A stretch of 61,080 nt of DNA, the filler included. It is 4 parts of 4 records of this genome, joined end to end, with 100 filler letters (N's around TTAATTAATTAA, not from the genome) between each part and the next. Parts side by side here need not be neighbours in the genome. Positions count along the whole stretch, not along the records: positions 45,093 to 61,080 come from DRR378314_663; 3 more parts are not named here. One strand, given 5' to 3'. Below are positions 19,439 to 56,576 of this stretch, one piece after another. The position numbers were made by a program, and so were the translations under genes. Each line of letters starts with the position of its first letter. Within the stretch, counting starts at the first letter, position 1. The notes below the pieces were generated by a model, which searched no databases, was not told the DNA's origin, and worked only from the letters and a program-made list of their open reading frames with translations.

Positions 19439-19538
19439 NNNNNNNNNNNNNNNNNNNNNNNNNNNNNNNNNNNNNNNNNNNNTTAATTAATTAANNNNNN
19501 NNNNNNNNNNNNNNNNNNNNNNNNNNNNNNNNNNNNNN
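19439..19538. other. Artificial contig spacer
   Basis: N44-TTAATTAATTAA-N44, a six-frame stop linker. Confidence 0.99.
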
Positions 19539-36947: not shown

Positions 36948-37047
36948 NNNNNNNNNNNNNNNNNNNNNNNNNNNNNNNNNNNNNNNNNNNNTTAATTAAT
37001 TAANNNNNNNNNNNNNNNNNNNNNNNNNNNNNNNNNNNNNNNNNNNN
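36948..37047. other. Artificial contig spacer
   Basis: N44-TTAATTAATTAA-N44. Confidence 0.99.
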
Positions 37048-37217
37048 GCTGGGAGCCGTTAGTCGGCGGCGCGACGCGGGGAGCGCGGTCGTGAGCGGAC
37101 GCGTCGGCCTCCAGCGGCCGCGTAGCGCTCGACGCGACCCGTTCTCGCTCGCATCTCGCCCTCCGCTCTTCCCCGCCCCTGGCACCCATCGTCACTTCAC
37201 TCACACTACCGATGTAG

Positions 37218-40200: not shown

Positions 40201-42679
40201 CACTCTCATCGCTCGTACTCAGGATTCTCGTGTTTCGTTCTCCTTTCTCTACACTTTTCTCCGCTGTAGGGCTACTGTGCGACCACTGGCGCTGCCTACG
40301 TCGACTTCATGGTGGGAGATCGTGTGTCGAACCCGCCAGAGCACCAGAGTCACTTCGCGGAGTCTCTGTCGCTGTTTCCGCGTGTGTTCATGACTCCGCT
40401 GCTCTTCCACCGCTTTCAGCCGCTCGCGCGACATCCACTTCCGCGATCGAGATTCCAGGAGGGGAAAACGGGGAACTTCACCCGCGCGGACTTTGATATT
40501 CCCGAGGGCAAGTTCGTCTTCTGCAACATGGGATCAAAGTTTAAGATCGATCGCGAGTTTTTCCGCATCTGGATGAGGATTTTGGCGCAGAATCCGGATT
40601 CGGTTCTCTGGATGAAGAGTTTCCCCTCCGAAGCAGATGAAAACCTCCGCAGGGAAGCGCTCGCCGCCGGAATCGACCCGTCCCGCCTCATTTTCAGCTC
40701 CGCGCTCCACCAACACGCTTACCTGGCGATCTGGCGGACAGTGTGCGATTTGTTCTTGGATACACGCGTGTATTCCGCACATTCGCAAACGCTCGATCTT
40801 ATCCACGTCGGTGTTCCAATTCTCACGCTTCCCGGGTAAGCGCTCTCTCGCTCTCTCTTTCGCATAATCAGCGCGAACCAAGAAGAAAAATTCGGCCACG
40901 AGCAAGTGGGAATTATCGCTGGAAACGCGCCGCAGATCGCGTAAAACGCGGATTCGCGGGAACCGCGGTGGGAGAGCTGAACGCAGAGGGGAAGAGGGAG
41001 AGTACGGCCGTTATTCTTGTTTCGTTCATATACTCTTCGTAGGTATTTTTGATGACTAAGATGGTGCGAATTCGGTACTCTGTTGCTCGTTTGTTGTTCT
41101 TGTTTAAGGTTTTCGCGTTCTTCTGTTCTGTGTTGCTAAGTGTCAGTTTCTTTCTCATTGTAATTTTTGCTATTTCTGAAAACGTCGTCTTCGGAGATTC
41201 GTGATTCCCAACTCGCTGTTTCTCCCTCACCCTCTCCCTCCCGGTCGCGTCTGCGCGTACAAAAGTATCCCACACGTCTTGATTCTCGTCCCTTGAAGCT
41301 GACGGCCAGCAACGCAGGAAAGCTGTTTCACACTACAGCAAAAAAAAGTATTCGCTTCGGACGAACGCAAGAGCCCAGGGAGAGAGTCGTCGCGCTCTTC
41401 TTCGCTGCGAAGTCGTAGTTCTCGTCCGCGCCGCAGTGCTCTTCCCCCTCCCTGTCTCTTCCTTTCTCTCCCCTGTTGATTTTGCGTATCGTCTACTCAC
41501 TCGCAGCCACTATCGCTCTGTCCTTGAATACTCACAATTGATCTCTCCACGGTGGCATATGCTCGCAATGCGCCATTCTTTCGTGCTGCAGTGACCGAAT
41601 GGTCTCGCGCGTTGGCGCGTCGCTTTTGCTCACTGCTGGATATCCGCAGCTACTCGCGCAGAACGAAGAAGATTACGTGGAAAAAGCGGTACGAGTGATG
41701 CGCGCCATGCACGACAGCAACGTGTTTGAGTCTTGTGTAGCAGCTTTGTGCTCATAGAGAGTAAGGGTTCGCGAGGACAACGGCATCCGGATTGTGAAAT
41801 AGAGAGAGTTCGTGGGTGAAGCAGATAGAACCGATTCCCCTTGGTCTCTCATTCTTGCCCAGTTTCGGTAAATTACCGAGAAATTTTGTTGCTCTTCTGT
41901 TCCTTCTTCCCCATTTACTCTTCGATTCGCCCACACAGCGCTTTCATACTTATTTTATTTGTTTGTTTATTTGTTTATCGTTTGCAAGTGCGGTAGCTAA
42001 GCTGAATCTTCTTGACCAGCACATTGAGATTTGTTCGTGATAAGTGCTTTGATAAGAGAAACCACATTCTTGTCTTTCCAAAAAGTCACAGGTTCTTAGT
42101 CTTTCGCTTGTTGATAAGAGCGAGAATTGGCGGAACTAATCCTTATTTTCACGCGTTTCCTATTGTGTAGTCGATTATCGCGAAATACAATGATCGCGTG
42201 AGAGACGTGCGTGAGTTCCGTTCTCATATGCGGAATATCGAACCGATGATGAACACCAAGGTACAGACTTTGTCTGAAAAGGGGGAGAGAGATCGTGAAA
42301 CGGATGGTGAAGAGAATCGACCAAACTAAATAAGCTAATTACTGTCATCTTCATGATCGGTTTTGATCTCTCTTATGCCGCTGTGGTTCAATTTGTAATC
42401 CTCCGTGATAGAAAAATTGTTCCACTTTCTCCCTTCCCTATTACATTTGCCAATTCGTTTGGGAAAGCGCATCGATCAGTCCTTGAATTAGAATATTTCT
42501 CTATTCCAACGTTCCGTTTGCTCAACGTTCTTGATTCGCCCATGTCCTAACCCTTATTCTTTGCGCTGTTTTTTTTTTCTTGGTAACTTCAGAACTGGTT
42601 TGCCGATTATTCGCGAATGATGAAGCTTCAGTGGGAATTATTCGCAGCGGAAAAGCGGCATTTCCATCTCGTGTTGTAA
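37218..42679 (+). CDS. TPR + GT41 O-GlcNAc transferase (OGT/SEC-like), multi-exon; 5' end uncertain
   Basis: TPR exons (YPDFADGYHGIAGVL; DPEHAEALGTL), then LQSACDW, SVHPFH, LRVGFVS..DH, IDVLVHVNGLT...RPAPVQ, GYCATTGA, FCNMGSKFKID, DLFLDT..YSAHS, GVPILTLPG, SRVGASLL and a terminal exon ending TAA at 42679. Collinear with OGT catalytic domains. Confidence 0.88.
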
Positions 42680-42918
42680 ATGCAGTGAAGAGGATGAAAA
42701 ATCTCACAAAATGTCGATTGTGAGTTTGTATTTTACCCATAATACATGATACCGGGTAATCACGACTCGACAAAAAGAAAGCATATCGACGGCAAAACGG
42801 GCACAAAATTCACATCAATGGACCGCGATAGAAAATGAAAAAAAATGTGCATTTTCCATTTCAAACATCGCCATGAAGAACTCGCTCTTCCATTGACAAT
42901 TCGTCGGAAAGAAACGAG

Positions 42919-44760
42919 TTACGAGACATCATAGACTATTGTTGGAGCATACTCATCATCTGCATCGTATTCAATCGATCTCGTGCGCAAAATTGCATCA
43001 ATATCCCACTGGAATCGCTTTCGAAGAAGTTTCCGAAGTCTTTCAGACCGTTTCTGCAAAGCAACAAAAGAAAGTAAAATAAGACCAAGAAATATGAAAA
43101 ACTGAACAAACAACGCATTCCTGCTCGTTTCAGAGCAGTATCGGGTCGAACAAAAACACACAAGGCAAAGAAACCGATGTCCTCACTCCTAGTTCTGCTA
43201 TGCAAAAGACCTTTCTTTCCGCTATAAGCTGCGTTGTTCCCTGTTTGCGTTCAACACATTCGATACGATTAAAATCTTGAACAAAACCTTTCACGTGCGA
43301 GTGTTTCTCTCCAGGAGCATGACGAGTACGTTCTACCAGGGAAATAACGAGAGCGAGAAGTATGAACAAAACACCGATACAAATAACAACGCCTACAAAG
43401 CAATCTTGGAACTTGCAGAGAGAAAGTAATGCGAGAAGAAGAAAAAAAACCTAAAACGCGAGTCCGTTCACTCAACAGCGAAACCGAATCGTTTCAGGTG
43501 TGGAAAGAGATACCGAAATACATAGTGACCATTTCCGGGTCTCGTTTTCTGACCCAATTACACAAAGGACATGATATTCTTCAAATTTACAAAAGGAAAG
43601 GGCTGTTTTCCAAAAAGCTGGAAATCGAGAACGAGAGCGAAGCACTTGGTATTTTTTTACTCAAAGAGCGAAGCAGCAGCTCCAAGACAAAGAGACATCC
43701 AGAAAGGTGACCAAATGCATATCTTGCACGGAAACGTGCAGAGTTGCGAGAGCGGATTTCAATCATGCAACAGAACCATATTCAGACTGTACAATATCGT
43801 GTGGCAACGAAAGGAAGAACACTTTACTTGTCGCCGGAAACTGCAACGAAGACTCATCCCAAACTGAGCAGAAACACCGCCGTCGAGCAGAGCTGGAAGA
43901 GAACAGACGCGAATTTGCGCACTTCGCTGATGTGGCTGCAGGCAGAACGCGCGCAGACCCGTACCCTGAGTTCGTCATTTTCTTCTTCCTGACTCTCATC
44001 CATTCGCTCAAAATGCTCCTACACGTGCACAGCCAGCGAGAGATATGCGTAAAATACGGAGAGCGTGAGTAAAACTCCACAGCAACTGCGCTCGCAAGGG
44101 TGTACAAGTCAGACAAGACCTTGGGCCTTTCCCATCGCCCAGGTGCGGTCCAGGAGCTATACGCAACCACATAAATTGCGACGGAATAGGAAATTTTCTA
44201 ACCTTGCGAAGAAGGAAAGCAAATTACCGGAGTCGCTGTGCGCGAACCAGATTTTCGCAACCAAGAGTCCTTGGATGTGACCGAAAGGAGGAGACGAGCG
44301 AGAAAAACATTGTCCCTCGAGGAAACCCATGTACGGCCTAGTATGTTAACCGATGACACTGCCACCAGCTTCGCTCCCCAGCTCTTTCAGCGTTCTCGCG
44401 TGTCTTTCAGATTTTGCTCGAAAGCGCTCGCGAATCAGCAAGCACGCTGTATATCCATGAAAATTACTCTAAGAAACCTTGGCAGGCACCAAGGCAAGGC
44501 AACGCGTAAAAACATGAGCGGACCTGAAGCGCATCCAGCAAGAAGTTCTCCCGCGAGAGCTCGTTGATAAAGAGGTCCTTGGGACAGGCTTGCAGCTGAT
44601 CGCAAAGCGCATCTGGAAACGAAATTGAAGAATGGAGGACCAAAAATTCCATCAGAAATGTGAATCAATAGTAGATACTCTGAATCAGCGATTCATGAAC
44701 TTCGTCGCCGGACCAATGGAAGAGACGAAACAACTCCGTGCAGCGTATACAACGCGGACA
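42919..44760 (-). CDS. Possible multi-exon membrane protein with a C-terminal TM helix
   Basis: Terminal exon FVQFFIFLGLILLSFVALQKRSERLRKLLRKRF...YDVS* (TM plus basic stop-transfer). Upstream exons are unresolved. Confidence 0.35.
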
Positions 44761-44992
44761 CACTGGATCTCGTCGCCGCGGGGCTGCGGGTGAGCGCTCG
44801 ACGGAGAGACTGCAGTGCTTTTCCCTTCCATCACGACACAACGGAGATGCGGAAAGAGGATGCAAATCGAAGTTTCGCAACCGAAAACGCGCGCGCATCA
44901 AAGCGCGATGCAAGTACGAGAAGAAAGCGCGAGAACGCGCTTCTCTTTGCGCAGACGAATACCCTCCTTCCTCGCCCGAAAGAGATTCAAAT

Positions 44993-45092
44993 NNNNNNNN
45001 NNNNNNNNNNNNNNNNNNNNNNNNNNNNNNNNNNNNTTAATTAATTAANNNNNNNNNNNNNNNNNNNNNNNNNNNNNNNNNNNNNNNNNNNN
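44993..45092. other. Artificial contig spacer
   Basis: N44-TTAATTAATTAA-N44. Confidence 0.99.
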
Positions 45093-45120
45093 CCGGGTCA
45101 GTTCTCAATGAAAACCAACA
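45093..45120. mobile_element. Terminal inverted repeat of a probable IS21-family insertion sequence
   Basis: Reverse complement TGTTGGTTTTCATTGAGAACTGACCCGG fits the TG...AAnTGACCC pattern of IS21-family ends. It places an in-frame TGA (45109-45111) just before the dctM PPVG codons. Confidence 0.65.
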
Positions 45121-45273
45121 CCGCCGGTTGGCACAACGCTGTTTGTGTCTGTCGCCATTGAACGTGTTCCCATGGGCAAGGTCGTGATGCAATTGCTGCC
45201 CTTCTATCTGGTCGCAATTCTTGTGCTGATGTTGGTCAGCTTTGTACCCGGCCTGACCACGATCTTCCTCTGA
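45121..45273 (+). pseudogene. dctM: 3' fragment of TRAP transporter large permease DctM, apparently IS-interrupted
   Basis: PPVGTTLFVSVAIERVPMGKVVMQLLPFYLVAILVLMLVSFVPGLTTIFL* is a typical DctM C-terminus. The frame is closed by a stop four codons upstream. Confidence 0.75.
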
Positions 45274-45312
45274 AATCCCATGCAAGCAAACACCCAACCA
45301 TTGAGGGCCCAA

Positions 45313-46161
45313 ATGGCTATTACTGCGACGACACATCTCTCAAATATCTCACTGGAGGAACGCGCGCGGCGCATCCGCGTGCATGGTCTGAAAATGGCCC
45401 GCGTCGTCGGCAAAGCCTATGTCGGACAGGTGCTTGCAATGGCTGATGTCTTATCTGTGCTGTACTTCCATGCTTTGAACTATCGTTCGGAAGATCCGGA
45501 ATGGGATGGCAGAGATCGGTTTTTCCTGTCGCATGGCCACATGGGCATTGCCCTTTATGGGGCACTCATTGAGGCGGGTATTTTGCCAGAAGATGAGCTT
45601 GAAACCTATGGCCAGGACGACAGTCGTTTCCCGATTTCCATCCAGCCAGCCTATACGCCGGGCATTGAAATTGCGAGCGGCACACTGGGTCACGGGCTTG
45701 GCATCGCGGTTGGGTCTGCGCTGACTTTACGCCGTCGTGGCAAGCCTTCGTTCATGTATTGTATGACGTCCGATGGCGAAATCAATGAAGGCTCTACCTG
45801 GGAGGCCGCCCTAAACGCAGGCAATCACAAACTCAAAAACCTGATTGTGGTGATGGACAATAACGACATGCAGAATGACGGGCCATCCTCGGAGGTCATG
45901 AACCTGGAACCCATTCAGGATAAATGGGCGGCCTTTGGGTTCGAAGTCTGGCGCGTGGATGGGAATAACATTCCGGCCCTGTGCCAAGCATTTGATGAGG
46001 CAAGGAATTCCAAAGCTGACAAGCCGCGTATCATCATCTGTGACAATCAGATGGGCAAAGGTGTCTCCTTTGTCGAACACCGTGAAAAGCAGGTTCATTT
46101 TATGCCTTGGTCCGCCGCAGATCTTGAACGGGCTCTGGCAGAATTGGGAGACAACAAATGA
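45313..46161 (+). CDS. Split transketolase-like protein, N-terminal (ThDP-binding) subunit, copy 1
   Basis: DRFFLSHGH, GTLGHGLG, SDGEINEGSTWEA...DNN. ATG 45313 has a GAGG RBS; alternative start 45280. Confidence 0.9.
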   Translation: MAITATTHLSNISLEERARRIRVHGLKMARVVGKAYVGQVLAMADVLSVLYFHALNYRSEDPEWDGRDRFFLSHGHMGIALYGALIEAGILPEDELETYGQDDSRFPISIQPAYTPGIEIASGTLGHGLGIAVGSALTLRRRGKPSFMYCMTSDGEINEGSTWEAALNAGNHKLKNLIVVMDNNDMQNDGPSSEVMNLEPIQDKWAAFGFEVWRVDGNNIPALCQAFDEARNSKADKPRIIICDNQMGKGVSFVEHREKQVHFMPWSAADLERALAELGDNK

Positions 46162-47186
46162 GACCAGCAAGAACTCAATCCCGGTACGAGGCGCGTGTTC
46201 CCGGTTCCGGTTTATCGACCCTATCAATGCTTGAATTTGAATCCGAAGGGGGTTTGCCCATGCAATCGGCCCCGTTTGGCAATGCCTTGTGCAAAGTTGC
46301 GCGAGAGAACCCGGATGTGATGGCAGTTTCGGCCGATCTATCCAACGTCACTGACATCTCTCCGTTTATCAAGGAATTCCCTGACCGCTATGTTCAGGTC
46401 GGCATTTGCGAACAGGCGCTGGCAACCGTTTCGGCAGGCATGGCGCGCGAGGGAGATACGGTTTTTGCCTCGACTTATTGTGCCTTTGCGGCGCGACGGG
46501 CGTATGACTTCATCTATCAGGCAATTGCTGAAGAACAGCTAAACGTCAAAATCATCGGCGCGGTTCCGGGCCTTAGCACCGGATATGGGCCAACGCATAT
46601 GGCCCCCGAAGACATCATGATCTTCCGGGGCATCCCTGATATGACCATTATCGACCCCTGTGATGGGCTGGACACAGAACAGGCTACCTACGCCATCGCC
46701 GCATACAAAGGTCCGGTATATATGCGTATCCCACGCGTTCAGGCCCCGGTGATACTCGACCAATTCGACTACGAATTCGAGCTTGGCAAAGCCAAAATGC
46801 TTCAGGACGGCAAGGATGTTCTGTTCATTTCGACTGGTTTGATGACCACCCGTTGCATCCTTGCGGCACGCCAACTCGCCAAGGACGGCGTAGAGTGCGC
46901 AATTCTGCATGTTCCCACCCTCAAGCCGCTGGATACCAAAACCATCGTTGAGGCCTGTCGCAAAACAGGGCGTCTTGTTGTGGTCGCCGAAAATCACACC
47001 ATTCAGGGTGGTCTGGGAGAAGCAACGGCCATGGCATTGATCTCACAAGGTGTCATGCCGTCGGGCTTCCGACAAATCGCCATTCCGGATGAATTCACCG
47101 ATGCAGGCACACTTCCGACACTTCACAATCGATATGGCCTGTCGGTTCCCGAAGTCTGCAATTCTGTCAGATCCTGGCTGAAATAG
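46158..47186 (+). CDS. Split transketolase-like protein, C-terminal (pyrimidine-binding) subunit, copy 1
   Basis: SADL, GICEQ, RRAYDF, GYGPTH, KPLD, AENH...GGLG; ATGA overlap with the upstream gene. Confidence 0.9.
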   Translation: MRPARTQSRYEARVPGSGLSTLSMLEFESEGGLPMQSAPFGNALCKVARENPDVMAVSADLSNVTDISPFIKEFPDRYVQVGICEQALATVSAGMAREGDTVFASTYCAFAARRAYDFIYQAIAEEQLNVKIIGAVPGLSTGYGPTHMAPEDIMIFRGIPDMTIIDPCDGLDTEQATYAIAAYKGPVYMRIPRVQAPVILDQFDYEFELGKAKMLQDGKDVLFISTGLMTTRCILAARQLAKDGVECAILHVPTLKPLDTKTIVEACRKTGRLVVVAENHTIQGGLGEATAMALISQGVMPSGFRQIAIPDEFTDAGTLPTLHNRYGLSVPEVCNSVRSWLK

Positions 47187-47221
47187 CCGGTCAAAACGCC
47201 CCCGAGATAGAAAGTACGAGT

Positions 47222-48070
47222 ATGACCACAGATGAAAATTCACGTTCAAACGTTAGCCTGAAAGAACGTGCCACTCGCATCCGCCGCTATGCCCTGCGCA
47301 TGGGCGAAGTTCAGGGACAAGGGTACATTGCCCAGGCTCTGGGTTTGGCGGATGTCTTGGCGGTGATATATTTTCACGCCGCCAGAATGCGGCCCGAAGA
47401 CCCGGAATGGGAAGGCCGAGACCGAGTGTACCTATCGATGGGACACTATGCGATTGCACTATACGCGGCCCTAATCGAGGCCGGAATTCTGCCCGAAAAC
47501 GAATTGGAAACCTATGGCAGCGACGACAGCCGGATGCCAATGTCGGGCATGGCGGCCTACACACCGGGCATGGAGATTACGGGCGGATCGCTGGGTCACG
47601 GGCTGGGCATCGCAGTAGGTGGTGCGATGGGCCTGAAGCGCAAGAAATCTGACAGTTGGATCATCAATATGTTGTCCGACGGCGAGCTTGACGAGGGTTC
47701 AACCTGGGAAGCGGCAATGGCGGCAACCCATCACAAGCTCGATAACCTGATCGCTGTGGTCGATAACAACAACCAGCAGGCCGACGGCGCATCACAGGAG
47801 ATGCTGGGAACAGAGCCGATCCACGAAAAATTCGCCGCCTTTGGCTGGCACGTACAGCGCGTCGACGGCAACGATATCGACGCCGTCGTTGCCGCATTCG
47901 ACGGTGCCAAGGCGGGAGAAATAGCTAAACCGCATGTCATTATCTGCGACACCAAAATGGCCTGTGGCGTGCCGTTTCTCGAAGCGCGGGAGAAAAACCA
48001 TTTCTTGCGTGTTGAGCCCCAAGAGTGGGCCGAGGCCATCAAAATTATCGACGAAGGACGCATTTCATGA
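47222..48070 (+). CDS. Split transketolase-like protein, N-terminal subunit, copy 2
   Basis: DRVYLSMGH, GSLGHGLG, SDGELDEGSTWEA...DNN. Confidence 0.92.
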   Translation: MTTDENSRSNVSLKERATRIRRYALRMGEVQGQGYIAQALGLADVLAVIYFHAARMRPEDPEWEGRDRVYLSMGHYAIALYAALIEAGILPENELETYGSDDSRMPMSGMAAYTPGMEITGGSLGHGLGIAVGGAMGLKRKKSDSWIINMLSDGELDEGSTWEAAMAATHHKLDNLIAVVDNNNQQADGASQEMLGTEPIHEKFAAFGWHVQRVDGNDIDAVVAAFDGAKAGEIAKPHVIICDTKMACGVPFLEAREKNHFLRVEPQEWAEAIKIIDEGRIS

Positions 48071-49101
48071 GCGCTCAAAGATTTGGAAAATATGATCCTC
48101 GCCCTCCTGTTCCCGCAGGTCAGCGTCTGAAAACTTCCGCCATGATCGCTTCATTGGCTGCCGACGGCATGCCAGTGATTGCCGCCCCTTTTGGACAGGC
48201 TCTTAACGAATTGGCTCAATCTAACGACAAGATTGTCGGTCTTAGTGCGGATCTGGCGAAATACACAGATATCCACGTTTTCCGCGATAAATACCCAGAC
48301 CGTTTCTATCAAATGGGCATGGCCGAACAGGTTCTGGTGTCAGCAGCGGCGGGATTGGCCCGCGAGGGGTTTCAATCTTGGGCGACGACCTATGCCGTCT
48401 TTGCTGCCCGCCGCGCCTATGACTTCATTTGCATGGCAATCGCCGAAGAGAACCTGGACGTTAAAATCATTGGCGGCCTGCCCGGTTTGACCACAGGCTA
48501 TGGCCCCAGCCATCAGGCGACAGAAGATCTCGCAATCTTTCGCGGCATGCCCAACATGACGATCCTCGACCCTTGTTGTGCAACGGATATCATGCAGGCA
48601 ACCAAGGCACTGTCCGCCTATAAGGGGCCTGCCTACATGCGACTGCTGCGTGGTAATGTACCCGATGTACCGGGCGAATACGGGTATCAGTTCGAACTTG
48701 GCAAGGCCAAGATGATCCGGGACGGTGTGGATGTTCTCTATATCTCGACGGGTCTTATGACCATGCGGGTTCTGGAGGCAGCCAAAAAGCTGGCAAAAGA
48801 CGGCGTAGATTGTGCTGTGCTGCATGTGCCTACGATCAAGCCGTTTGACGCAGCAACAATTGCCGAAGCCGCCGGGAAGACAGGACGCCTGGTCATCACG
48901 GCAGAGAACCACACGATTATTGGTGGACTTGGCGAGGCAGTCGCAGCCGAGCTTATGCGGCGCGGTGTGCACCCCACTTTCCGCCAAATCGCCTGCCCGG
49001 ATGAGTTTCTGGATGCTGGTGCCTTGCCGAACCTGCACGAGCGATATGGTTTGTCGGAAGATGCAGTCATTCGTCAAACGAAAAACTGGCTCAGCGAATA
49101 A
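48067..49101 (+). CDS. Split transketolase-like protein, C-terminal subunit, copy 2
   Basis: SADLAKYTD, GMAEQ, GYGPSHQATED, AENH; ATG 48067 in an ATGA overlap. Confidence 0.92.
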   Translation: MSAQRFGKYDPRPPVPAGQRLKTSAMIASLAADGMPVIAAPFGQALNELAQSNDKIVGLSADLAKYTDIHVFRDKYPDRFYQMGMAEQVLVSAAAGLAREGFQSWATTYAVFAARRAYDFICMAIAEENLDVKIIGGLPGLTTGYGPSHQATEDLAIFRGMPNMTILDPCCATDIMQATKALSAYKGPAYMRLLRGNVPDVPGEYGYQFELGKAKMIRDGVDVLYISTGLMTMRVLEAAKKLAKDGVDCAVLHVPTIKPFDAATIAEAAGKTGRLVITAENHTIIGGLGEAVAAELMRRGVHPTFRQIACPDEFLDAGALPNLHERYGLSEDAVIRQTKNWLSE

Positions 49102-49116
49102 TCTGGAAAGTATCAA

Positions 49117-50073
49117 ATGACAAAAATAGTATTTCTTGACCGCGAAACCATTGGTCCTGGTGTCATACTCAATCGGCCTCAGACGGATCACGAGTGGGTA
49201 GAGTATCAGGCGACAGCGGAAGCGCAGGTGTTAGAGCGGGCGAAAGACGCCGATGTGATCATAACCAACAAAGTGCCCATCGGCGAAACCACTCTTGCGG
49301 GCCTGCCCAACTTGAAAATGATCGCCATCGCTGCAACCGGTTATGACGTTGTGGATGTAGCGGCATGTTCCAATCGCGGTATCATCGTGTCAAACGTGCG
49401 CGGCTATGCCATCAACACCGTTCCCGAACACGCCTTTGCACTGATCTTCGCCTTACAACGCAACATCGTGGGATACCGACAGGATGTGATTGACGGTGCA
49501 TGGCAAAAATCCGGTCAGTTCTGTTTCTTTACCCATCCCATTCGTGACCTGTCCGGGGCGCGACTTGGCATACTCGGCGAAGGCGTAATCGGGCAGTCGG
49601 TGGCACGGATAGGCCGGGCGCTTGGGATGGATGTTGTGTTTGCCTCGCATAAGGGTGTGGAGGGTCTCGGGCCACTTTACACACCTTGGGATGAGGTCAT
49701 GGAGACCAGCGATGTTCTGACCCTGCATGCTCCGCTAATGCCCGCCACACGCAATATGATCTCAACCCCGGAATTTGAGGCCATGAAGCGGAAACCCATC
49801 ATTATCAACACGTCGCGTGGGGGGCTTGTAGATGAAGCCGCCATGGTTGATGCGCTGGATCGCGGATTGATTTCCGGCATCGGTTTTGATGTGCTGACTT
49901 CAGAACCCCCTCAACCTGACAATCCGATTTTGCAAATCCTTGATCGCCCTAATGTGATCGTCACCCCGCATGTCGCCTGGGCATCAACTGAAGCACGGCA
50001 AACGCTTTGGGATCAAGTAGTGCACCATATTGATAACTTCCTGACCGGGCAGCCCTCCAATGTTGTTGGCTGA
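49117..50073 (+). CDS. D-2-hydroxyacid dehydrogenase (hydroxypyruvate reductase/glycerate dehydrogenase, HprA-like)
   Basis: IVFLDR, ITNKV, ATGYD, GEGVIG, LHAPL, INTSRGGLVDE, DVLTSEPP, TPHVAW. Confidence 0.88.
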   Translation: MTKIVFLDRETIGPGVILNRPQTDHEWVEYQATAEAQVLERAKDADVIITNKVPIGETTLAGLPNLKMIAIAATGYDVVDVAACSNRGIIVSNVRGYAINTVPEHAFALIFALQRNIVGYRQDVIDGAWQKSGQFCFFTHPIRDLSGARLGILGEGVIGQSVARIGRALGMDVVFASHKGVEGLGPLYTPWDEVMETSDVLTLHAPLMPATRNMISTPEFEAMKRKPIIINTSRGGLVDEAAMVDALDRGLISGIGFDVLTSEPPQPDNPILQILDRPNVIVTPHVAWASTEARQTLWDQVVHHIDNFLTGQPSNVVG

Positions 50074-51319
50074 AGAAAAACTGCGCGCCCTGTTTAACGC
50101 TGCACTTGAAGCGGCGGAGCCAAAGCGGATCCTTGCCAAACATCTGCCCGCAAGACCCAGTGGCCGCACAATCGTTTTGGGTGCGGGCAAAGCGTCAGCC
50201 GCGATGGCCGCGGCGGTTGAGACGCATTGGGATGGCCCTTTGGAAGGGTTGATCATTACACGCTATGGCCACAGTTGCCCAACCCGGCACCTGCGTATTG
50301 TCGAGGCGGCGCATCCGGTACCAGATGAAGCGGGACGCAAAGCCACGGCAGAACTGATGGCACTAGCCCAATCCGCCGGGCCTGATGATCTGGTGTTGTG
50401 TCTTATCTCGGGTGGCGGATCGTCACTGCTTAACGCCGCTCCCACGGGGATCACGTTCGAAGAAAAACAATCCATCAACAAGGCGCTTTTAAAATCCGGG
50501 GCACCGATTGCAGAGATCAACTGTGTCCGCAAACATCTGTCCGACATAAAAGGGGGCAAACTTGCGGCGCTGGCAGCACCGGCAAAGGTGGTCACCCTGT
50601 TGATCTCGGATGTGCCCGGAGATGACCCGGCCACTATCGCATCGGGCCCGACCGTGGCCGATTTGTCCACGAGTCAAGACGCTTTGGCAGTACTCAAACG
50701 CTATGACGTGACTGTTTCCAATACCATTCTGCAACATTTGGAAAACGCAGCATGCGAAACTCCAAAAGCGGAGGATCAGATATTCGCAAACTGCGAAACG
50801 AGAATGATCGCCACGCCGCAAATATCACTGGAAGCTGCCGCAGCCAGAGCCATGGAAATGGGGTTAACCGCCCATATCCTGAGCGACCGGATCGAAGGTG
50901 AGGCGCGGGATACGGCAAAGGCTTTGGGCGCAATCGCACTGCAGGTGGCACAACATGGCCAGCCTTTCAGCAAACCGTGCGTTCTGCTTTCTGGCGGAGA
51001 GACCACTGTGACCGTACGGGGGTCCGGGCGCGGCGGCCGCAATGTAGAGTTCTTGTTGGCCCTCGCCCACGTTCTTGAAGGTGCACCTGGGATCTATGCC
51101 CTTTCCTGTGACACTGATGGTGTAGACGGGCTGGAGGAAATTGCTGGTGCTGTGATCGGCCCACAGACTTTGAAGAACGCCAGAGATCGGGGGATGAACG
51201 CACGCGCCATGCTGGACAATAATGATGGCCACAGCTTGTTCGAAGCACTTGAGGCTCAGGTTATCACTGGTCCCACTTTGACCAATGTAAACGATTTTCG
51301 TGCGATCCTTATTGAGTGA
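50060..51319 (+). CDS. Glycerate 2-kinase, MOFRL/TtuD family
   Basis: GAGKAS, EAAHPVPD, LISGGGSSL, IKGGKLA, SDVPGDD..IASGPT, GGETTV, DTDGVDG, TGPTLTNVND. Confidence 0.92.
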   Translation: MLLAEEKLRALFNAALEAAEPKRILAKHLPARPSGRTIVLGAGKASAAMAAAVETHWDGPLEGLIITRYGHSCPTRHLRIVEAAHPVPDEAGRKATAELMALAQSAGPDDLVLCLISGGGSSLLNAAPTGITFEEKQSINKALLKSGAPIAEINCVRKHLSDIKGGKLAALAAPAKVVTLLISDVPGDDPATIASGPTVADLSTSQDALAVLKRYDVTVSNTILQHLENAACETPKAEDQIFANCETRMIATPQISLEAAAARAMEMGLTAHILSDRIEGEARDTAKALGAIALQVAQHGQPFSKPCVLLSGGETTVTVRGSGRGGRNVEFLLALAHVLEGAPGIYALSCDTDGVDGLEEIAGAVIGPQTLKNARDRGMNARAMLDNNDGHSLFEALEAQVITGPTLTNVNDFRAILIE

Positions 51320-51743
51320 GTTCGAATTTCCGGGACGGTGTCATGGCATTATTGCACAAACCGGGTTTGGTAGGCTCCGGCGTGCCGAAACCGGGCGCAA
51401 TCCCGCTGTCACGCTGGATGTTCCACTACCCAATTCAAATCCACGCCCTCTCCTGACCACATGCGATTTTACTCGCACGACACAAGATAATGACCCTGTC
51501 ACGGCACACTGCAGGCTCTACCGCCCCCTTTTGGCCCAATATACTGTCCGCACCCTCGACCGGTCACTGCGGTCATATTCCCCTCCACCGCCACATCAAT
51601 ATGTCGCAAGATTTGAAACAATCCGTTGCTCACATAGAAAAGGCCGTACGCAACAGGATCAGTCAGGATCGCCCGCAGGCATGTTTTATAAGCTAACATA
51701 CATCATGCGCCCCGGCCCTCCTGTCGCGACCAGGCCCGTGGGG

Positions 51744-52538
51744 TCAGCGCTGGTAAATCACCGGGAACCAATCTTCGCGCAGAATCTGGCCCGGCGTCAT
51801 GTCGTGACCCGGAAACGGTGGCGAAGTCGGACCGGGACGCTCGACATAACGCGCGTCATCACCCACAAGGCGCAATGAAAACGCACGGCGGCGCGTGTCG
51901 GTCGTATTGCCCCGTGCGCCATGCAAAGTGCCGTAGTTGAAGGCCACCGCGTCGCCCGGCTCCATTTCCCATTCGCGGATTGCCATACCCTCGGCGTCCG
52001 GGTCCGGCACTGGCATATATTCATCCTCATTCGGATAGAAACTGGTCTCTGCCAACCAGCGGGTGGGCAACACCGGTTTCTCCCATGCATGGCTTCCTGC
52101 CACACACCGCAGGCTGGCCCCCTTAACAGTATCCATCGGCGACCAGAAACTGACGTTCTGCATCCCATCGACAAAGTAATAAGGGCCATCCTGATGCCAC
52201 GGTGTTGGCTTGGATGTTCCCGGCTCTTTGACAAGCACATGATCGTGGAATACTTGCACACGCTTTGATTGCATCAGATCAGCAGCCACTTCGCCCGCGT
52301 CGGAGTTTCGGATCACATGTTCGAATTCACTGATACGGTTCCAGTTGCAATAATCATCGAAAAACCGCCCGCCTTCGCCTTCTTTGAGGTTCTCGGCGGC
52401 ATAGGGTCCAGGTTCATCCATATTGCGTTCAATACCCGCGCGGATCGTCTCGACATGATCGGCAAACAGCCCTTTGATCAACACAACGCCATCGCGCTGG
52501 AAGCTATTGATATCGCCTTGAGTGACAAGTGGGTGCAT
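51744..52538 (-). CDS. PhyH-family Fe(II)/2-oxoglutarate dioxygenase
   Basis: TPWHQD (HxD), distal LHG and RRAFS. ATG 52538 has a GAGGA RBS. Confidence 0.9.
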   Translation of the reverse strand: MHPLVTQGDINSFQRDGVVLIKGLFADHVETIRAGIERNMDEPGPYAAENLKEGEGGRFFDDYCNWNRISEFEHVIRNSDAGEVAADLMQSKRVQVFHDHVLVKEPGTSKPTPWHQDGPYYFVDGMQNVSFWSPMDTVKGASLRCVAGSHAWEKPVLPTRWLAETSFYPNEDEYMPVPDPDAEGMAIREWEMEPGDAVAFNYGTLHGARGNTTDTRRRAFSLRLVGDDARYVERPGPTSPPFPGHDMTPGQILREDWFPVIYQR

Positions 52539-52589
52539 GTGTTCGTCCTCCGTGTTGGGAACAGGCATAAGCAACAAAAGATTTAACTT

Positions 52590-52618
52590 CTAATAATATT
52601 TACTCATACTATTATTAG
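52590..52618. promoter_or_regulatory. Inverted repeat in the phyH-lysR divergent promoter; candidate LysR site
   Basis: CTAATAATA-11 nt-TATTATTAG, a perfect 9-bp inverted repeat in an AT-rich 84-bp spacer. Confidence 0.5.
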
Positions 52619-52622
52619 GCCA

Positions 52623-53570
52623 ATGCTATACCTTACTCTTCGTCAATATGAATATATTGTCGGCGTTGCCGACACAGGCAGCCTGACCAAAGCTGCTGCG
52701 CAACTGAATGTCTCGCAACCCTCGCTTTCGGTTGCGATCACACGGGTCGAACAGCACCTCAAACGCACGATTTTCCTGCGCGGAAAAGGGTCTGCAATTG
52801 AAATTACCCCTTTCGGTCACCGTCTGATCGCCAAGGCGCGGAGTCTCTTGGCGTTAGGGGCTGAGATTGAACAGGATCACGACGCGGCGCAGACATGGGT
52901 GCTGGGTTGTTTTGCAGATATCGCGCCATGGTACATGGCCCCCGTACTCAAGAAACTTGGTGACCGTTTTCCAGCGCTGACATTTGTAGGGCGCGAAGGG
53001 CGCTTTGCTGATCTGGGGCGCGATCTGGCGGAAGGAAAGATAGATTTTGCGATTTCCTATGATGTCGGATTCGAGGGAAATTTCACGCGGCGCAAACTGG
53101 TTGATATCGCGCCAGTGGCCTTTGTCGCCACGGACCATCCTTTAGCGCAGGCAAACACGCTGGAACTCTCTGACCTAAAAGATATGCCTCTGATCCTGTT
53201 CAACGAGGATCTGTCGGAAGGGTTCATGCGGGATTTGTTTACGCGAATAAATCTGACACCTGTGATTAAGCAAAAGGTGGCATCGCTGGAAATGATGCGC
53301 TCTCTTGCGGCAAATGGTGTGGGCGTTGGCATCAGCTATTCCCGCCCACCCGGGCACCTGAGCTACGATGGCAAACCTCTTGTGACGCTGCCAATTGCCA
53401 CGCCAGAGGCCAAAACAGAAATTGCCCTGATCTGGTCAGGCTTGCGAGCAGATTCCTCTGATTTCGACGCCATCCTTGATGTGCTTACACCTCCAGTGGT
53501 TGATGCTGTAAGCTCTGAGAGAGCGGGCCTCAGGCGCATTCGTCAAGGATTTGGTCCAGAACAGCGATGA
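52623..53570 (+). CDS. LysR-family transcriptional regulator
   Basis: TLRQYEY...GSLTKAAAQLNVSQPSLSVAI HTH plus substrate-binding domain; divergent from phyH. Confidence 0.95.
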   Translation: MLYLTLRQYEYIVGVADTGSLTKAAAQLNVSQPSLSVAITRVEQHLKRTIFLRGKGSAIEITPFGHRLIAKARSLLALGAEIEQDHDAAQTWVLGCFADIAPWYMAPVLKKLGDRFPALTFVGREGRFADLGRDLAEGKIDFAISYDVGFEGNFTRRKLVDIAPVAFVATDHPLAQANTLELSDLKDMPLILFNEDLSEGFMRDLFTRINLTPVIKQKVASLEMMRSLAANGVGVGISYSRPPGHLSYDGKPLVTLPIATPEAKTEIALIWSGLRADSSDFDAILDVLTPPVVDAVSSERAGLRRIRQGFGPEQR

Positions 53571-56535
53571 TCATCTCGGCATCCTCTGCCTCAATTGTCA
53601 GCGGAGGTCGGATTTTGAGGATATTGTCTTTTGGCCCCTCACTGCCGATCAGAATGCGATGGTCGCGCATGCGGTTCTTGACGTAGGCGCAAATCTCCGT
53701 CGCTTCGGCTCCATCAGGCCGGATCAGCTCCACCCCCAGAAACAACCCCATTCCCCGCACGTCGCCCACGCAGCCATGCTTGGCTTCCAGCATTCTAAGA
53801 CCGGCCATCAATTGACCGCCGATCAGCCGTGCGTTTTCCTGCAAGCCTTCGTCGTCCACGATCTGCAAAACCTCGCGACCTATCCGGCATGACAGGGTCG
53901 ATCCCCCGAAGGTCGAGAAAAACTCGATTCCATTGTCAAAGCTCTCTGCGATTTCCTTGGTTGTGACGAGCACCCCCATCGGATGCCCGTTGCCAATCGG
54001 TTTGCCCAGGACAACGATGTCGGGCCGCACCTCCTGGTGTTCAAACCCGAAATAGTATTCACCCAAACGTCCAAGCCCCGTCTGGACTTCGTCCGCGATA
54101 CAGATGCCACCTGCGGCGCGGATCTTGGCGTAGACCGCTGACAAATACCCTTTGGGCGGAATGATCTGACCACCAACCGAAGGGAAGGTTTCTGCGATGA
54201 ACCCTGCAACCCCCTGTCCTTTTTGGTGAAGGGAAGCGATCGCCGGATCGACAAGATCCGCGAATTTCTGCGCTCGGTCAGGGTCATTACGCCGGAAAGT
54301 TCCACGGTAATCATCTGCAACCTCAACCAGTTCGACCCAATCGGCCTGCCCCACGCCATTCGGCTTGTTGAACTTGTAGGCGGAGATATCGACTGCACCT
54401 GTGGTACTCCCGTGATAGCCATGGTCGGGCGTGATCATGCCCTTGGCACCGGTGTGGGCGCGCGCCAGCCGCAGGGCCAGCTCGTTCGCTTCGGACCCGG
54501 AATTCACGAAAAAACACACCTGCAAATGATCAGGCATCTTCGACAGAATTTTGTCGGCAAACGCGGTCTGCGCAGGATGCAGATAGCGGGTGTTGGAGTT
54601 GATCCGCTTGAGTTGATCCGCCGCTTCGGCCTGAATGCGCGGATGGGCATGGCCCACATGTGGTACGTTGTTATATGCATCCAAATAGGGACGGCCCCAT
54701 TCGTCAAATAGGTGATGCCTCCAGCCACGCAACAACATCACCGGGTCATCATAGGTCAGGCTCAGATTGCCACCGAAATGCGCATCCCGGCCCTGCCTGA
54801 CCCCTGCCTTGTCGGTCGGGAAATAGCACAGCTTGTCGTCGGGCAGATTCAGCATTGCCGCCGGATTGGGGCAGATCGCGCACCACAAATACATCTCGTC
54901 GGGATCACCCACACCCGGCCAATCGGCCTCAATCCCTTCGGTGGTCAGCGCCAGTTGGAAATGCACATGCGGTGCCCACCCACCGTTCATCGAAGGATCG
55001 CCGAGACGGCAGAACTCTTCGCCTTTTTCAATCATCTGTCCTACCTTCAGGCGGTCCAGAAACTCAGGGTCTAGATGACCATAGAGGGTGAAAAACGGAT
55101 CGCCCGCCGGGGTCTCATGGCGCAGAATGATCACCCCGCCATAGTCCAGATGCCCCGCGCGATATTCTGCGATGAACACCTCGCCGCGCAGGGGTGCAAA
55201 CATGGGCGTGCCCGCAGGCGCAAATACATCTACGGCCAGATGCACCGTGCGGCGATCGCTGGCCTTCCATGGCCCTTTGCGAAAGGCGGGTTCCGCATAG
55301 ATCAGACGCGGTTCATGATAGTAGCCGAGCCACATGCGCCCCTGATCCTCGAACTCCTCTCCCACTCTTGCGGCTTCCTCCAGCGGCAAGTGAAACGGGT
55401 TCTGCGGCCAGGTTGATTCCTCAACAGACAGAGACCCCAGTGGCGCATTCGACAGGTCACACCCCATCAGGGGCGAGAAATTTCCGCGTTCCTGTTCAAG
55501 CCATGCCGCCACCCGGTCGGCCCCATCAACCACCGGCAGGCCACAAGCCGCCCGCAACCTTGCCGACAGCAAACCACCATGCAGTGAGCATTCTTCCAGA
55601 AACCGCCAGGCCGGTGCCTGCGAAATGGTGACATAGGGGTCATCGGGATTTTCAATTGCCATCAATGTGGAATTCACCACGCTCACCGCCAGCCGCATGC
55701 GTAAGAGCGGCCAGATCATGTCGACCTCTTCCACTGTGAGCGGGTTGGCATGATGATAGCCGGCGACCAAGGCGGCAAGAGCGGCTTCAGGGCTCGGGTG
55801 ATCCAGCACGATGTAAGCTGCAGCAATCGCCAGGTCGCAGATCCGAGGGGCCGCACACATGTCGCCCAGATCGATCAGGCCGGAGACGCGGCGCGGCGCG
55901 TTCAAGGTGCCTTCGATCAGGATGTTATAGTCATTGGCATCGTTGTGGATCGCCTGACGCGGCAACCTCTCCAGCGCCGGTTTCAGCACCGCAAATTGGC
56001 GATGAATGTCCTCTATAATCTGACGTCGGGCCAGATCGGCAATGCAGCCGGTTTGATCTTTGATCCAACCGGCGCGCATCAGGTCCCATTTGAAATCACG
56101 CTCCAGCCCGTCATGCTGGAAATCAGCCAAAGCCAGCGCCGCACCACCGAGCACCTGCCCGACCTCATGGATCAGCGCATCACTTTTCGGTGCCACATGT
56201 GCAAAACATTGCCCCGGCAGTTGACTTAGAACCCAGGCAAGACGCTCTGCACCTGTCTCGTCTTTCAGGGAAATCAGCCGCCCGCCCTGCACCGCGCGTA
56301 CAACAACCGGACAAGGCAACTGCGGCTGTCTTGCGGTGATATGCTCGAATGCCTTGACCTGCATGTCCACCAACCACGTTTCGCAGCCCGCGCGCATGAC
56401 CTTGAGAATGTACCCCTTGCCATCATCGGCTTTTGCCAGAAAGTTAAGATCATATTCACCATCCAGCTGGCTCAGCTGTGCTGTAATGCCCCAATGTTGC
56501 TCTAACGCCGTCCGCCAATGCTGGATGTTCCGCAT
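53530..56535 (-). CDS. Three-domain fusion: APH/hydroxylysine-kinase-like + M23/LytM + class III PLP aminotransferase/phospho-lyase
   Basis: Kinase: GEYDLNF, LKV, HNDANDYN, IDLGD. M23: HLAVD, YGHL, PHVHFQ. PLP domain: YLDAYNNVPHVGH, NSGSEAN, ADEVQTGLGR, LGKPIGNG, STFGG. Start at ATG 56535 (1001 aa). Confidence 0.9.
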   Translation of the reverse strand: MRNIQHWRTALEQHWGITAQLSQLDGEYDLNFLAKADDGKGYILKVMRAGCETWLVDMQVKAFEHITARQPQLPCPVVVRAVQGGRLISLKDETGAERLAWVLSQLPGQCFAHVAPKSDALIHEVGQVLGGAALALADFQHDGLERDFKWDLMRAGWIKDQTGCIADLARRQIIEDIHRQFAVLKPALERLPRQAIHNDANDYNILIEGTLNAPRRVSGLIDLGDMCAAPRICDLAIAAAYIVLDHPSPEAALAALVAGYHHANPLTVEEVDMIWPLLRMRLAVSVVNSTLMAIENPDDPYVTISQAPAWRFLEECSLHGGLLSARLRAACGLPVVDGADRVAAWLEQERGNFSPLMGCDLSNAPLGSLSVEESTWPQNPFHLPLEEAARVGEEFEDQGRMWLGYYHEPRLIYAEPAFRKGPWKASDRRTVHLAVDVFAPAGTPMFAPLRGEVFIAEYRAGHLDYGGVIILRHETPAGDPFFTLYGHLDPEFLDRLKVGQMIEKGEEFCRLGDPSMNGGWAPHVHFQLALTTEGIEADWPGVGDPDEMYLWCAICPNPAAMLNLPDDKLCYFPTDKAGVRQGRDAHFGGNLSLTYDDPVMLLRGWRHHLFDEWGRPYLDAYNNVPHVGHAHPRIQAEAADQLKRINSNTRYLHPAQTAFADKILSKMPDHLQVCFFVNSGSEANELALRLARAHTGAKGMITPDHGYHGSTTGAVDISAYKFNKPNGVGQADWVELVEVADDYRGTFRRNDPDRAQKFADLVDPAIASLHQKGQGVAGFIAETFPSVGGQIIPPKGYLSAVYAKIRAAGGICIADEVQTGLGRLGEYYFGFEHQEVRPDIVVLGKPIGNGHPMGVLVTTKEIAESFDNGIEFFSTFGGSTLSCRIGREVLQIVDDEGLQENARLIGGQLMAGLRMLEAKHGCVGDVRGMGLFLGVELIRPDGAEATEICAYVKNRMRDHRILIGSEGPKDNILKIRPPLTIEAEDAEMIIAVLDQILDECA

Positions 56536-56576
56536 GAAATTGTCCCTGGTTTTTGAAATGCTGAAATGCGGGCCGC

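Follow-up and report, generated by a model that had tools for sequence, protein, structure and literature searches.

Two split transketolase-like enzymes with remodelled active sites in a carboxylate-transporter operon of a marine Roseobacter-family bacterium: a candidate route for small sugar acids

Results

A TRAP-linked operon with two split transketolase-like enzymes

A 61-kb stretch of DNA made up of four joined contigs (the window) carries, on its fourth contig (positions 45093-61080), an operon in which two successive gene pairs encode split transketolase-like, thiamine diphosphate (ThDP)-binding enzymes behind a tripartite ATP-independent periplasmic (TRAP) transporter. In both pairs, and throughout the widespread family to which they belong, residues associated with sugar-phosphate binding and donor recognition in ordinary transketolase are replaced, while the cofactor-binding and catalytic core is kept. 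We tentatively propose, giving the scheme somewhat less than an even chance, that a small hydroxy acid would be imported, oxidised and cleaved by a ThDP enzyme in unphosphorylated form, and that its carbon would pass through a second ThDP step to D-glycerate and on to 2-phosphoglycerate.

The window segment is the distal two thirds of an operon with the order dctP-dctQ-dctM-tkN1-tkC1-tkN2-tkC2-hprA-like-glycerate kinase (Table 1). Downstream of the dctM remnant, six open reading frames (ORFs), all on the plus strand, are intact and give full-length Pfam matches; neighbouring genes lie no more than 35 nt apart, tkC1 and tkC2 each begin in an ATGA overlap with the gene before them, and the kinase gene overlaps the dehydrogenase gene by 14 nt. 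The two pairs are paralogous and well diverged, the N subunits (N1 and N2) being 60% and the C subunits (C1 and C2) 57% identical. An initial annotation, generated by a model from the letters alone, had described a co-oriented, tightly spaced operon behind a TRAP importer and two intact, diverged transketolase pairs, and both descriptions hold. For tkN1, an alternative ATG at 45313, the start used in the initial annotation, would give a protein of 282 aa, the length of the database copy P0001; for tkC2, the ORF list begins at a GTG at 48025, and the ATG at 48067 is preferred as the likely start. The closest relatives of tkC2 are P0237 (86% identity) and two Roseibium loci, L011 and L014.

For the two enzymes encoded at the distal end of the operon, fold and domains are clear, and the scores with models of specific function lie below the cut-offs. 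The 2-hydroxyacid dehydrogenase scores 354 bits with NF005387 and 129 bits with the GhrB model, in each case against a cut-off of 492, and its nearest structure is 5tx7, for which no function has been assigned. The MOFRL kinase scores 246 and 190 bits with the archaeal glycerate 2-kinase equivalogs, the only such models in NCBIfam, the cut-offs being 550 and 670. The operon copy is the second in the genome, another MOFRL gene lying at C1:279405 of G001, a 4.4-Mb genome that contains the same 8.5 kb in the same gene order at 99% identity.

The active sites depart from ordinary transketolase

The four proteins were aligned to E. coli TktA, human transketolase and the split transketolase 6yak, together with a family sample of 67 N and 68 C subunits; residues are numbered as in TktA, and the position of each functional residue was checked on the K-12 sequence. 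We take Arg358, Ser385, His461 and Arg520 to be the sugar-phosphate binding residues of transketolase, His26 and His100 to contact the C1-hydroxyl of the donor, and Asp469 to read the C2-hydroxyl of the acceptor. Both pairs and the 67-68 family sequences keep H66, D155, N185, H261, E411 and H473, as well as R520, and tkC1 accordingly retains Glu85, His147 and the Arg equivalent to R520. The remaining positions have changed. H26 is replaced by Tyr and H100 by Ser in 67/67 family N subunits, as in tkN1 (Tyr47/Ser120) and tkN2, and an alignment of 11 sequences shows an invariant Arg116 four positions ahead of Ser120. On the C subunit, S385 is replaced by Tyr in all 68 family sequences (Val in tkC1, Tyr in tkC2), D469 is replaced by Tyr in 68/68 with an additional one-residue deletion, H461 is Ala or Gly in the family (A or V in C1, G in C2), and R358 is variable (Q or S in C1, I or A in C2). 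Only one of the four phosphate-binding residues, the R520 equivalent, thus remains. Because of these replacements, the sugar-phosphate site and the donor-hydroxyl histidines are gone. S385 and D469 are also positions that were mutated in laboratory-evolved E. coli transketolase for non-phosphorylated acceptors (PMC5073344).

These changes bear on the simplest alternative, namely that the pairs serve the pentose-phosphate pathway as ordinary or redundant isozymes, or act on a phosphorylated ketose in the manner of AptAB, and merely adjoin a transporter. All four proteins are named "transketolase" by Pfam and NCBIfam, and their cofactor-binding and catalytic core is intact, as this alternative would have it. 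The replacement of three of four phosphate-binding residues, Asp469, His26 and His100 is family-wide, however, the neighbourhood is conserved over 84 loci (see below), and G001 carries a separate canonical full-length transketolase elsewhere while the locus itself has no sugar kinase. Single subunits score 198-239 bits with the nearest transketolase model, NF004559, whose cut-off is 488; this is weak evidence, since the model is full-length and its cut-off is out of reach for one subunit. Judged from these residues, an ordinary transketolase function is very unlikely for either pair, and we regard this alternative as a whole as very improbable.

Comparison with two known split enzymes points the same way. 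The best solved match is the split transketolase of Carboxydothermus hydrogenoformans (6yak/6yaj; E 3e-59 and 4.8e-61), which has the same N + C architecture but keeps the six residues that the window proteins have replaced; because it retains His26, His100, Arg358, Ser385, His461 and Asp469, it is, going by its residues, a normal sugar-phosphate transketolase. AptA/AptB is the apulose-4-phosphate transketolase of the D-apiose "transketolase route" (Carter et al. 2018, cited in PMC13001218 and PMC13753588). Like the window pairs, it is a split N + C ThDP enzyme that cleaves a C-C bond in a dedicated catabolic operon, outside the pentose-phosphate pathway. The window proteins are only 36% (N) and 31% (C) identical to AptA and AptB of E. 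coli SE15 (ECSF_RS02710/ECSF_RS02715), and AptA keeps His26 and His100, unlike the window N subunits. The context also differs: the AptAB operon has an FGGY kinase, a CUT2 ATP-binding cassette (ABC) transporter and a phosphorylated ketose, whereas the window locus has a carboxylate TRAP transporter, two pairs and no sugar kinase. The distinctions that the initial annotation had drawn from xylulose 5-phosphate/ribose 5-phosphate enzymes and from the apiose route are therefore borne out. Separately, the "two transketolases RL2718-19" of Rhizobium leguminosarum, reported with a CUT2 transporter and a short-chain dehydrogenase/reductase (SDR) (PMC3333776), resemble the E. coli apiose cluster in layout and not the present family, and were set aside on layout only.

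The upstream genes and the transporter

The upstream genes had been thought to be cut off. This proved to be an assembly artefact at the contig joint, as the full gene order is present in G001 and in L103, a 364-kb metagenome contig with the same order and 99% identity. The first 25 bases of the fourth contig (45093-45117) are shared neither with G001, whose alignment starts at query base 26, nor with contigs from the runs X1 and X2, which diverge before 45118. The missing dctP, dctQ and dehydrogenase genes were recovered from G001: upstream of dctM lie dctQ and dctP, then a divergent GcvA-type LysR gene and then a gene for an L-threonate-dehydrogenase-like (LtnD-like) protein. The TRAP proteins are assigned by Pfam as DctP (3e-77), DctQ (1e-22) and DctM (2.3e-105; 479 aa). 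The lack of a sugar kinase, noted initially for the window, extends to the full G001 locus, which also has no FGGY kinase and no ABC transporter; OtnI, OtnK and OtnC are likewise absent from the window and the G001 locus, and no isomerase is found among the annotated neighbour genes of either. Two Hint-domain proteins are encoded further upstream in G001 (L009:8232-10908, -).

The binding protein gives clues to the type of ligand. Arg150, Arg171 and Asn211 of the G001 DctP align with Arg152, Arg173 and Asn213 of 4P47, the carboxylate triad, as read against PMC11668362. The best solved relative of DctP, 4P47, is ligand-free, and the C4-dicarboxylate DctP 9dsy follows at E 1.9e-38. Close to the G001 DctP is also 4NQ8, and close to two other cluster DctPs are 4P9K, 4PDH and 4PDD, all of them reportedly pantoate- or erythronate-bound. 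The paper on IseP goes no further than describing closed structures in its own homologue set as binding pantoate or erythronate, and 7BBR as binding a sugar acid (PMC11668362).

A widespread family with a conserved neighbourhood

A word-indexed search gave at least 6979 proteins at E <= 0.001 among 8000 candidates scored. Close relatives of tkN1 form seven clusters at 66-85% identity, with thousands more at ~60%. The split family is present in Pseudomonas, Acinetobacter, Pantoea, Serratia, Rhizobium, Ensifer, Bosea, Methylobacterium, Paracoccus and roseobacters, and its members are annotated everywhere as plain "transketolase". Genome and metagenome scans gave 160 loci and same-family genomes 13 more, to which the window and G001 proteins were mapped by phmmer; both subunits are present in 135 of 171 loci.

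Neighbours were counted in the 84 related loci whose flanking sequence reached 8 kb or more in both directions, the window's own copies excluded. The most frequent are an SDR (79 loci) and a LysR-type regulator (75), followed by TRAP genes (46), a major facilitator superfamily (MFS) transporter of the anion:cation symporter (ACS) type (25) and an LtnD-like gene (21); a full-length transketolase is found in 13, a 2-hydroxyacid dehydrogenase in nine, a glycerate kinase in six and an ApnO-like (DRL_cat) oxidoreductase in five. No further neighbour family was common among these loci. The conserved core is therefore a dehydrogenase, a carboxylate transporter, a LysR-type regulator and one split pair, and the proposed link to hprA and glycerate kinase genes does not hold generally. 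The MFS transporter scores 348 bits with TIGR00893, below the cut-off of 395.

The identity of the dehydrogenase varies among loci. Three of the five loci without an SDR have an LtnD-like gene, which suggests that the latter can take the first-step role; many loci hold both, and in the subclade closest to tkC2 (L011, L014 and G142) the LtnD-like gene directly follows tkC. Through the LtnD-like and ApnO-like enzymes and one neighbouring DUF1537 kinase, the family is linked to the C4/C5 sugar-acid metabolism set out in PMC12994016 and PMC13753588. In all five Roseobacter-family loci with the DRL_cat (ApnO/DXR-like) oxidoreductase, its gene adjoins tkN, divergently in three (Table 1), and the G094 cluster has both a DUF1537 kinase and a PGDH_C dehydrogenase. 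We also noted that one cluster SDR (L012:9219-10016, +) is closest to PDB entries 7krk/7krm, with 324 bits; these were deposited as "3-oxoacyl-ACP reductase", an uncharacterised "FabG", and going by this similarity their name may be wrong and the protein an orthologue of a sugar-acid dehydrogenase.

Pair 1 is rare, and a second transketolase-fold enzyme recurs

Pair 2 belongs to the widespread family, and pair 1 to a clade (TK1) nested inside it. The TK1 clade has an SH-aLRT support of 100 and a long stem (0.6) in a quick IQ-TREE run for which SH-aLRT is the only support measure. Its C subunits form 10 protein clusters, including one from Terasakiella sp. SH-1. For pair 1, the genome scan gave only relatives at ~55-63% identity, the metagenome scan only the 99% copy L103, and a TK1-type C subunit occurs in 1 of 401 genomes of the host's family (G001). 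Among 201 genomes of that family, the split family is present in 17 and two split pairs are found in G001 only. Clusters of N1-like, C1-like and C2-like proteins share two contig sizes, and two other clusters share a third; on contig sizes alone, this hints at a tandem arrangement in at least two further organisms.

The TK1 changes cluster around the active site. tkC1 has Val64 where 139/139 family sequences have Tyr (Y64V, the S385 site), and the C subunit further carries C134G and L136V (H461 site), S146T and Q148M (flanking H473) and L191I and L192P (R520). On the N subunit, M119I, M122Q and A123P surround Ser120, Q45K is near Tyr47, A199N near the Mg site and V277W near H261. Changes at family-invariant positions beside catalytic residues indicate a changed specificity and not decay. 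Judged by these features and the tree, pair 1 is a rare, fast-evolved paralogue.

Where a full-length transketolase lies beside a split pair, it is usually a variant. Nineteen of the 21 checked carry R358I/Y/N, S385P/A/T and D469N with the other key residues intact, His26, His100 and His461 among them (examples in Table 1). This variant adjoins the 2-hydroxyacid dehydrogenase gene in five of the nine loci that have one, and the arrangement variant transketolase-dehydrogenase-glycerate kinase is found in L080, L082, L085 and L089. G001 has no variant full-length transketolase, and we think that pair 1 may stand in for it there. The initial expectation that two ThDP enzymes act in the pathway was thus upheld insofar as a second such enzyme recurs in the clusters of other genomes, though the tandem double split pair itself is rare.

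A second ThDP enzyme need not catalyse a second reaction. Both pairs could perform the same cleavage on different substrates or epimers, for example on one oxo-acid that the LtnD-like enzyme forms from L-threonate and another that the D-2-hydroxyacid dehydrogenase forms from D-erythronate. In keeping with such parallel use, both pairs share the family signature Tyr26, Ser100 and Tyr469, TK1 differs mainly at pocket-lining sites (Y64V, C134G, L136V, Q148M, M122Q and A199N), the locus has two dehydrogenases of the 2-hydroxy-acid type, and many loci combine an SDR with an LtnD-like gene. Elsewhere, however, the second ThDP enzyme is the full-length variant, which differs in structure and retains His26, His100 and His461; this argues for a different reaction and not for an epimer, and TK1 is absent from L011 and L014 although both dehydrogenases are present there. 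We consider parallel use possible but on the unlikely side.

Origin of the DNA and flanking genes

The four contigs of the window are joined by linkers of the form N44-TTAATTAATTAA-N44 at 19439-19538, 36948-37047 and 44993-45092. The operon's host is a marine Roseobacter-family bacterium. Only about one quarter of the window's sequence words are found in G001, and the matches of contig 2 there are trivial, for which reason the assembly mixes organisms. Contig 3 (37048-44992) has no ORF longer than 200 aa, 42-52% G+C, and homopolymer and CT-rich low-complexity runs; it is unlike bacterial DNA in appearance, a possible source being a eukaryotic host in the culture. Near-identical DNA for window positions 45093-53600 was found in public runs from seawater, aquaculture, aquatic and rhizosphere metagenomes; 17 public runs contain at least half of the sampled window words, and all matching runs come from eight studies, among which the source of the window may be one.

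Downstream of the operon, window positions 51744-56652 encode a PhyH-family dioxygenase (-), a second LysR-type regulator (+) and a 1040-aa fusion protein (-) that combines phosphotransferase (APH), peptidase M23 and class III aminotransferase domains and matches NF004799 ("hypothetical protein") with 1540 bits. These genes probably form a separate unit. Neither Pfam nor NCBIfam gave a match for an ORF at 51300-51878, whose translation is of low complexity and which overlaps the PhyH gene on the opposite strand; it was treated as non-coding. In a promoter and terminator scan, sites were no more frequent than in shuffled sequence.

Table 1. Features of the operon in the window and of related loci (window coordinates unless a locus is named)
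Feature	Coordinates	Strand	Remarks
Assembly joint	44993..45117	.	linker 44993-45092 plus 25 bases foreign to the bacterial contig
dctM 3' end (TRAP large membrane subunit)	45118..45273	+	last 51 codons; 99% identical to G001, which has the full gene
tkN1, ThDP-binding N subunit, pair 1	45280..46161	+	293 aa; PF00456 3.9e-38
tkC1, Pyr + C-terminal subunit, pair 1, rare TK1 clade	46158..47186	+	PF02779 + PF02780; ATGA overlap with tkN1
tkN2, N subunit, pair 2, widespread family	47222..48070	+	PF00456 4.6e-39
tkC2, C subunit, pair 2	48067..49101	+	PF02779 + PF02780; ATG overlaps tkN2 stop as ATGA
D-isomer-specific 2-hydroxyacid dehydrogenase, HprA/glycerate-dehydrogenase-like	49117..50073	+	PF02826 1.7e-48, PF00389
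DUF4147 + MOFRL kinase, glycerate 2-kinase type	50060..51319	+	PF13660 9e-86, PF05161 5e-36
Variant full-length transketolase (example; 16 more loci besides the three given)	L080:6800-8767	-	
Variant full-length transketolase (example)	L189:3774-5732	-	
Variant full-length transketolase (example)	L190:329-2299	-	
DRL_cat gene	L189:7002-8402	-	
DRL_cat gene	L190:7061-8407	-	
DRL_cat gene	L192:7135-8508	-	
DRL_cat gene	L195:11660-13003	+	
DRL_cat gene	L196:11516-12889	+	

Discussion

The scheme we favour would run in five steps. The TRAP transporter would import a small polyhydroxy-carboxylate, most likely a C4 sugar acid of the threonate/erythronate type, the main alternative being a pentonate or tartrate. 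An NAD(P) dehydrogenase would convert it to an alpha-hydroxy-keto acid; here this would be the LtnD-like enzyme and/or the 2-hydroxyacid dehydrogenase, elsewhere mostly the SDR. Pair 2, having lost the sugar-phosphate site, would cleave the keto acid with ThDP and without phosphorylation, and a second ThDP enzyme (pair 1 here, the variant full-length transketolase elsewhere) would take the other fragment or pass on the C2 unit. The resulting C3 product, tartronate semialdehyde or hydroxypyruvate, would then go to D-glycerate and 2-phosphoglycerate. Within this scheme, we prefer tetronates to pentonates, from which tartronate semialdehyde would arise directly, and to tartrate. The gene content, operon structure, family assignments, active-site remodelling and neighbourhoods are observed; the identity of the substrate, the site of cleavage, the sequence of the ThDP steps and an end in glycerate are inferred. 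In the earlier suggestion, a keto sugar acid would release hydroxypyruvate or a related C3 acid; transketolase chemistry, however, would give tartronate semialdehyde or glyoxylate and not hydroxypyruvate directly.

Several observations weigh against this scheme. A 3-oxo-tetronate cleaved in the manner of a transketolase would give glyoxylate and not a C3 acid, so that an extra, unproven step would be needed to reach glycerate. The 2-hydroxyacid dehydrogenase and the glycerate kinase are a recurrent minority among the related loci (9/84 and 6/84), and an ending in glycerate may therefore hold only for a subset. The window's own locus lacks the SDR, the commonest partner of the split family, and its LtnD-like protein, a beta-hydroxyacid dehydrogenase encoded outside the window, barely passes the NF043037 cut-off (360.9 bits against 350, with 360.4 for the homologue in L011), the proteins of other loci falling below it at 282-303 bits. 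Contig C2 of G001 holds canonical tetronate genes (PdxA, DUF1537 kinase and class II aldolase), and a second threonate route is therefore not required. Searches with three DctP queries gave no solved liganded orthologue of the cluster DctP (best matches ~E-56 to E-62). PlLtn3D (PDB 9X6I, 9XAX) is absent among the 36 structure matches of the cluster SDR at E <= 1e-40, which speaks against a simple threonate reading. Finally, no run listed as RNA contains this DNA. Contigs of two runs presumed to be RNA are short and of low depth, some with loose ends of 17-26 letters that are probably adapter remnants from sequencing, and cover coding and intergenic parts alike; they are therefore uninformative about expression.

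In a more specific version, the split family would be widespread "acid-sugar transketolases" that cleave oxo-sugar acids such as 3-oxo-tetronate, with ThDP and without phosphorylation, to glyoxylate and an activated C2 unit, replacing OtnK/OtnC. Coupled to them would be a further enzyme of the transketolase fold, which is pair 1 in this operon and the full-length R358I/D469N variant in other loci. It would act like a glyoxylate carboligase or as a C2 shuttle, giving tartronate semialdehyde or hydroxypyruvate and then D-glycerate and 2-phosphoglycerate in bacteria without Gcl. As a complete proposal we rate this as unlikely. Five Roseobacter-family genomes were searched for Gcl and tartronate semialdehyde reductase (TSR), and neither gave a match over the curated cut-off.

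An imported tartrate isomer would offer a different solution. The dehydrogenase (an SDR elsewhere, the D-2-hydroxyacid dehydrogenase here) would form oxaloglycolate, the transketolase-like enzymes would act as ThDP-dependent alpha-keto-acid decarboxylases giving tartronate semialdehyde, and an LtnD-like/TSR-like or HprA-like enzyme would produce D-glycerate for conversion to 2-phosphoglycerate. Such a route gives every cluster gene a role and closes the redox balance, and the HprA-like enzyme and MOFRL kinase resemble the end of the tartrate (ttu) route as generally understood. With the His100-to-Ser change and the invariant Arg116, the enzymes could accommodate and hold a second carboxylate. 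The MFS partner is of the ACS family, and the taxa with the split family are largely plant-associated. An MFS tartrate transporter and a tartrate dehydrogenase are cited in PMC3333776. The route has, however, no role for a second ThDP enzyme and leaves the ApnO-like, DUF1537 and LtnD-like neighbours unexplained; DctP is nearer to ligand-free 4P47 and to the binders given above as pantoate- or erythronate-bound than to the dicarboxylate protein 9dsy, and no transketolase-fold oxaloglycolate decarboxylase was found in the literature searched. Tartrate as the substrate is, in our judgement, a rather unlikely explanation.

The dehydrogenase might also run in the opposite direction, oxidising D-glycerate to hydroxypyruvate, from which the transketolase-like enzymes would transfer a C2 unit irreversibly, with release of CO2, to an unphosphorylated aldehyde formed from the imported acid. 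Transketolase is recognised to accept hydroxypyruvate as a substrate (PMC7403953), the two positions engineered for non-phosphorylated acceptors (PMC5073344) are both Tyr in the natural family, and in five loci the 2-hydroxyacid dehydrogenase lies beside the variant full-length transketolase. The glycerate kinase in the same operon would nevertheless compete for glycerate, carbon would be lost with no clear product, and 75 of the 84 loci have no such dehydrogenase. This makes a role for hydroxypyruvate as donor improbable.

The tetronate scheme has partial parallels in known systems. The sulfoquinovose route through 6-deoxy-6-sulfofructose transketolase (sulfo-TK, the subject of PMC11659671) reportedly uses one enzyme, SqwGH, twice, with an isomerase between the steps and a sulfonate end product. 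It shares with the window locus a split transketolase, ThDP cleavage twice per route and an anionic non-phosphate substrate, and differs, by its description only, in that the window locus has two ThDP enzymes, dehydrogenases and not isomerases, and glycerate-pathway enzymes at the end. In glyoxylate assimilation through the glycerate pathway, encoded by gcl-(hyi)-glxR-glxK, a ThDP enzyme, a reductase and a glycerate kinase follow one another, as they do in the variant transketolase and TK1/TK2 arrangements with 2-hydroxyacid dehydrogenase and glycerate kinase; here, however, the ThDP enzyme has the transketolase fold and not that of Gcl (pyruvate oxidase/acetolactate synthase, POX/ALS), and the reductase is a D-2-hydroxyacid dehydrogenase. 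In the LtnD/OtnI/OtnK/OtnC tetronate system, SDR-type Ltn3D and ApnO bypass the first steps (PMC12994016, PMC13753588). The likeness lies in the LtnD-like dehydrogenase at the locus, the ApnO-like and SDR neighbours in the family and the carboxylate transport; the difference is that ThDP enzymes here occupy the place of kinase and decarboxylase, the DUF1537 kinase and aldolase of G001 being on another contig. The region concerned (L187, G001:C2:72000-84331) encodes PdxA, an enolase-superfamily protein, TctABC, a weak DRL_cat match, a GntR regulator, a DUF1537 kinase and a class II aldolase.

No published description of such a cluster was found in the open-access literature and preprints searched; within that scope, the initial view of the pathway as undescribed stands. 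The operon may then represent a further transketolase-based catabolic route. If the family does cleave non-phosphorylated oxo-acids, a common mis-annotation would be corrected, and a third type of transketolase-based catabolic route would stand beside the apiose and sulfoquinovose routes. As the natural replacements at S385 and D469 match positions engineered in the laboratory (PMC5073344), the family may be a source of biocatalysts. Such a route would also throw light on the use of small sugar acids, for instance those formed when ascorbate is broken down, by bacteria that live with plants and algae.

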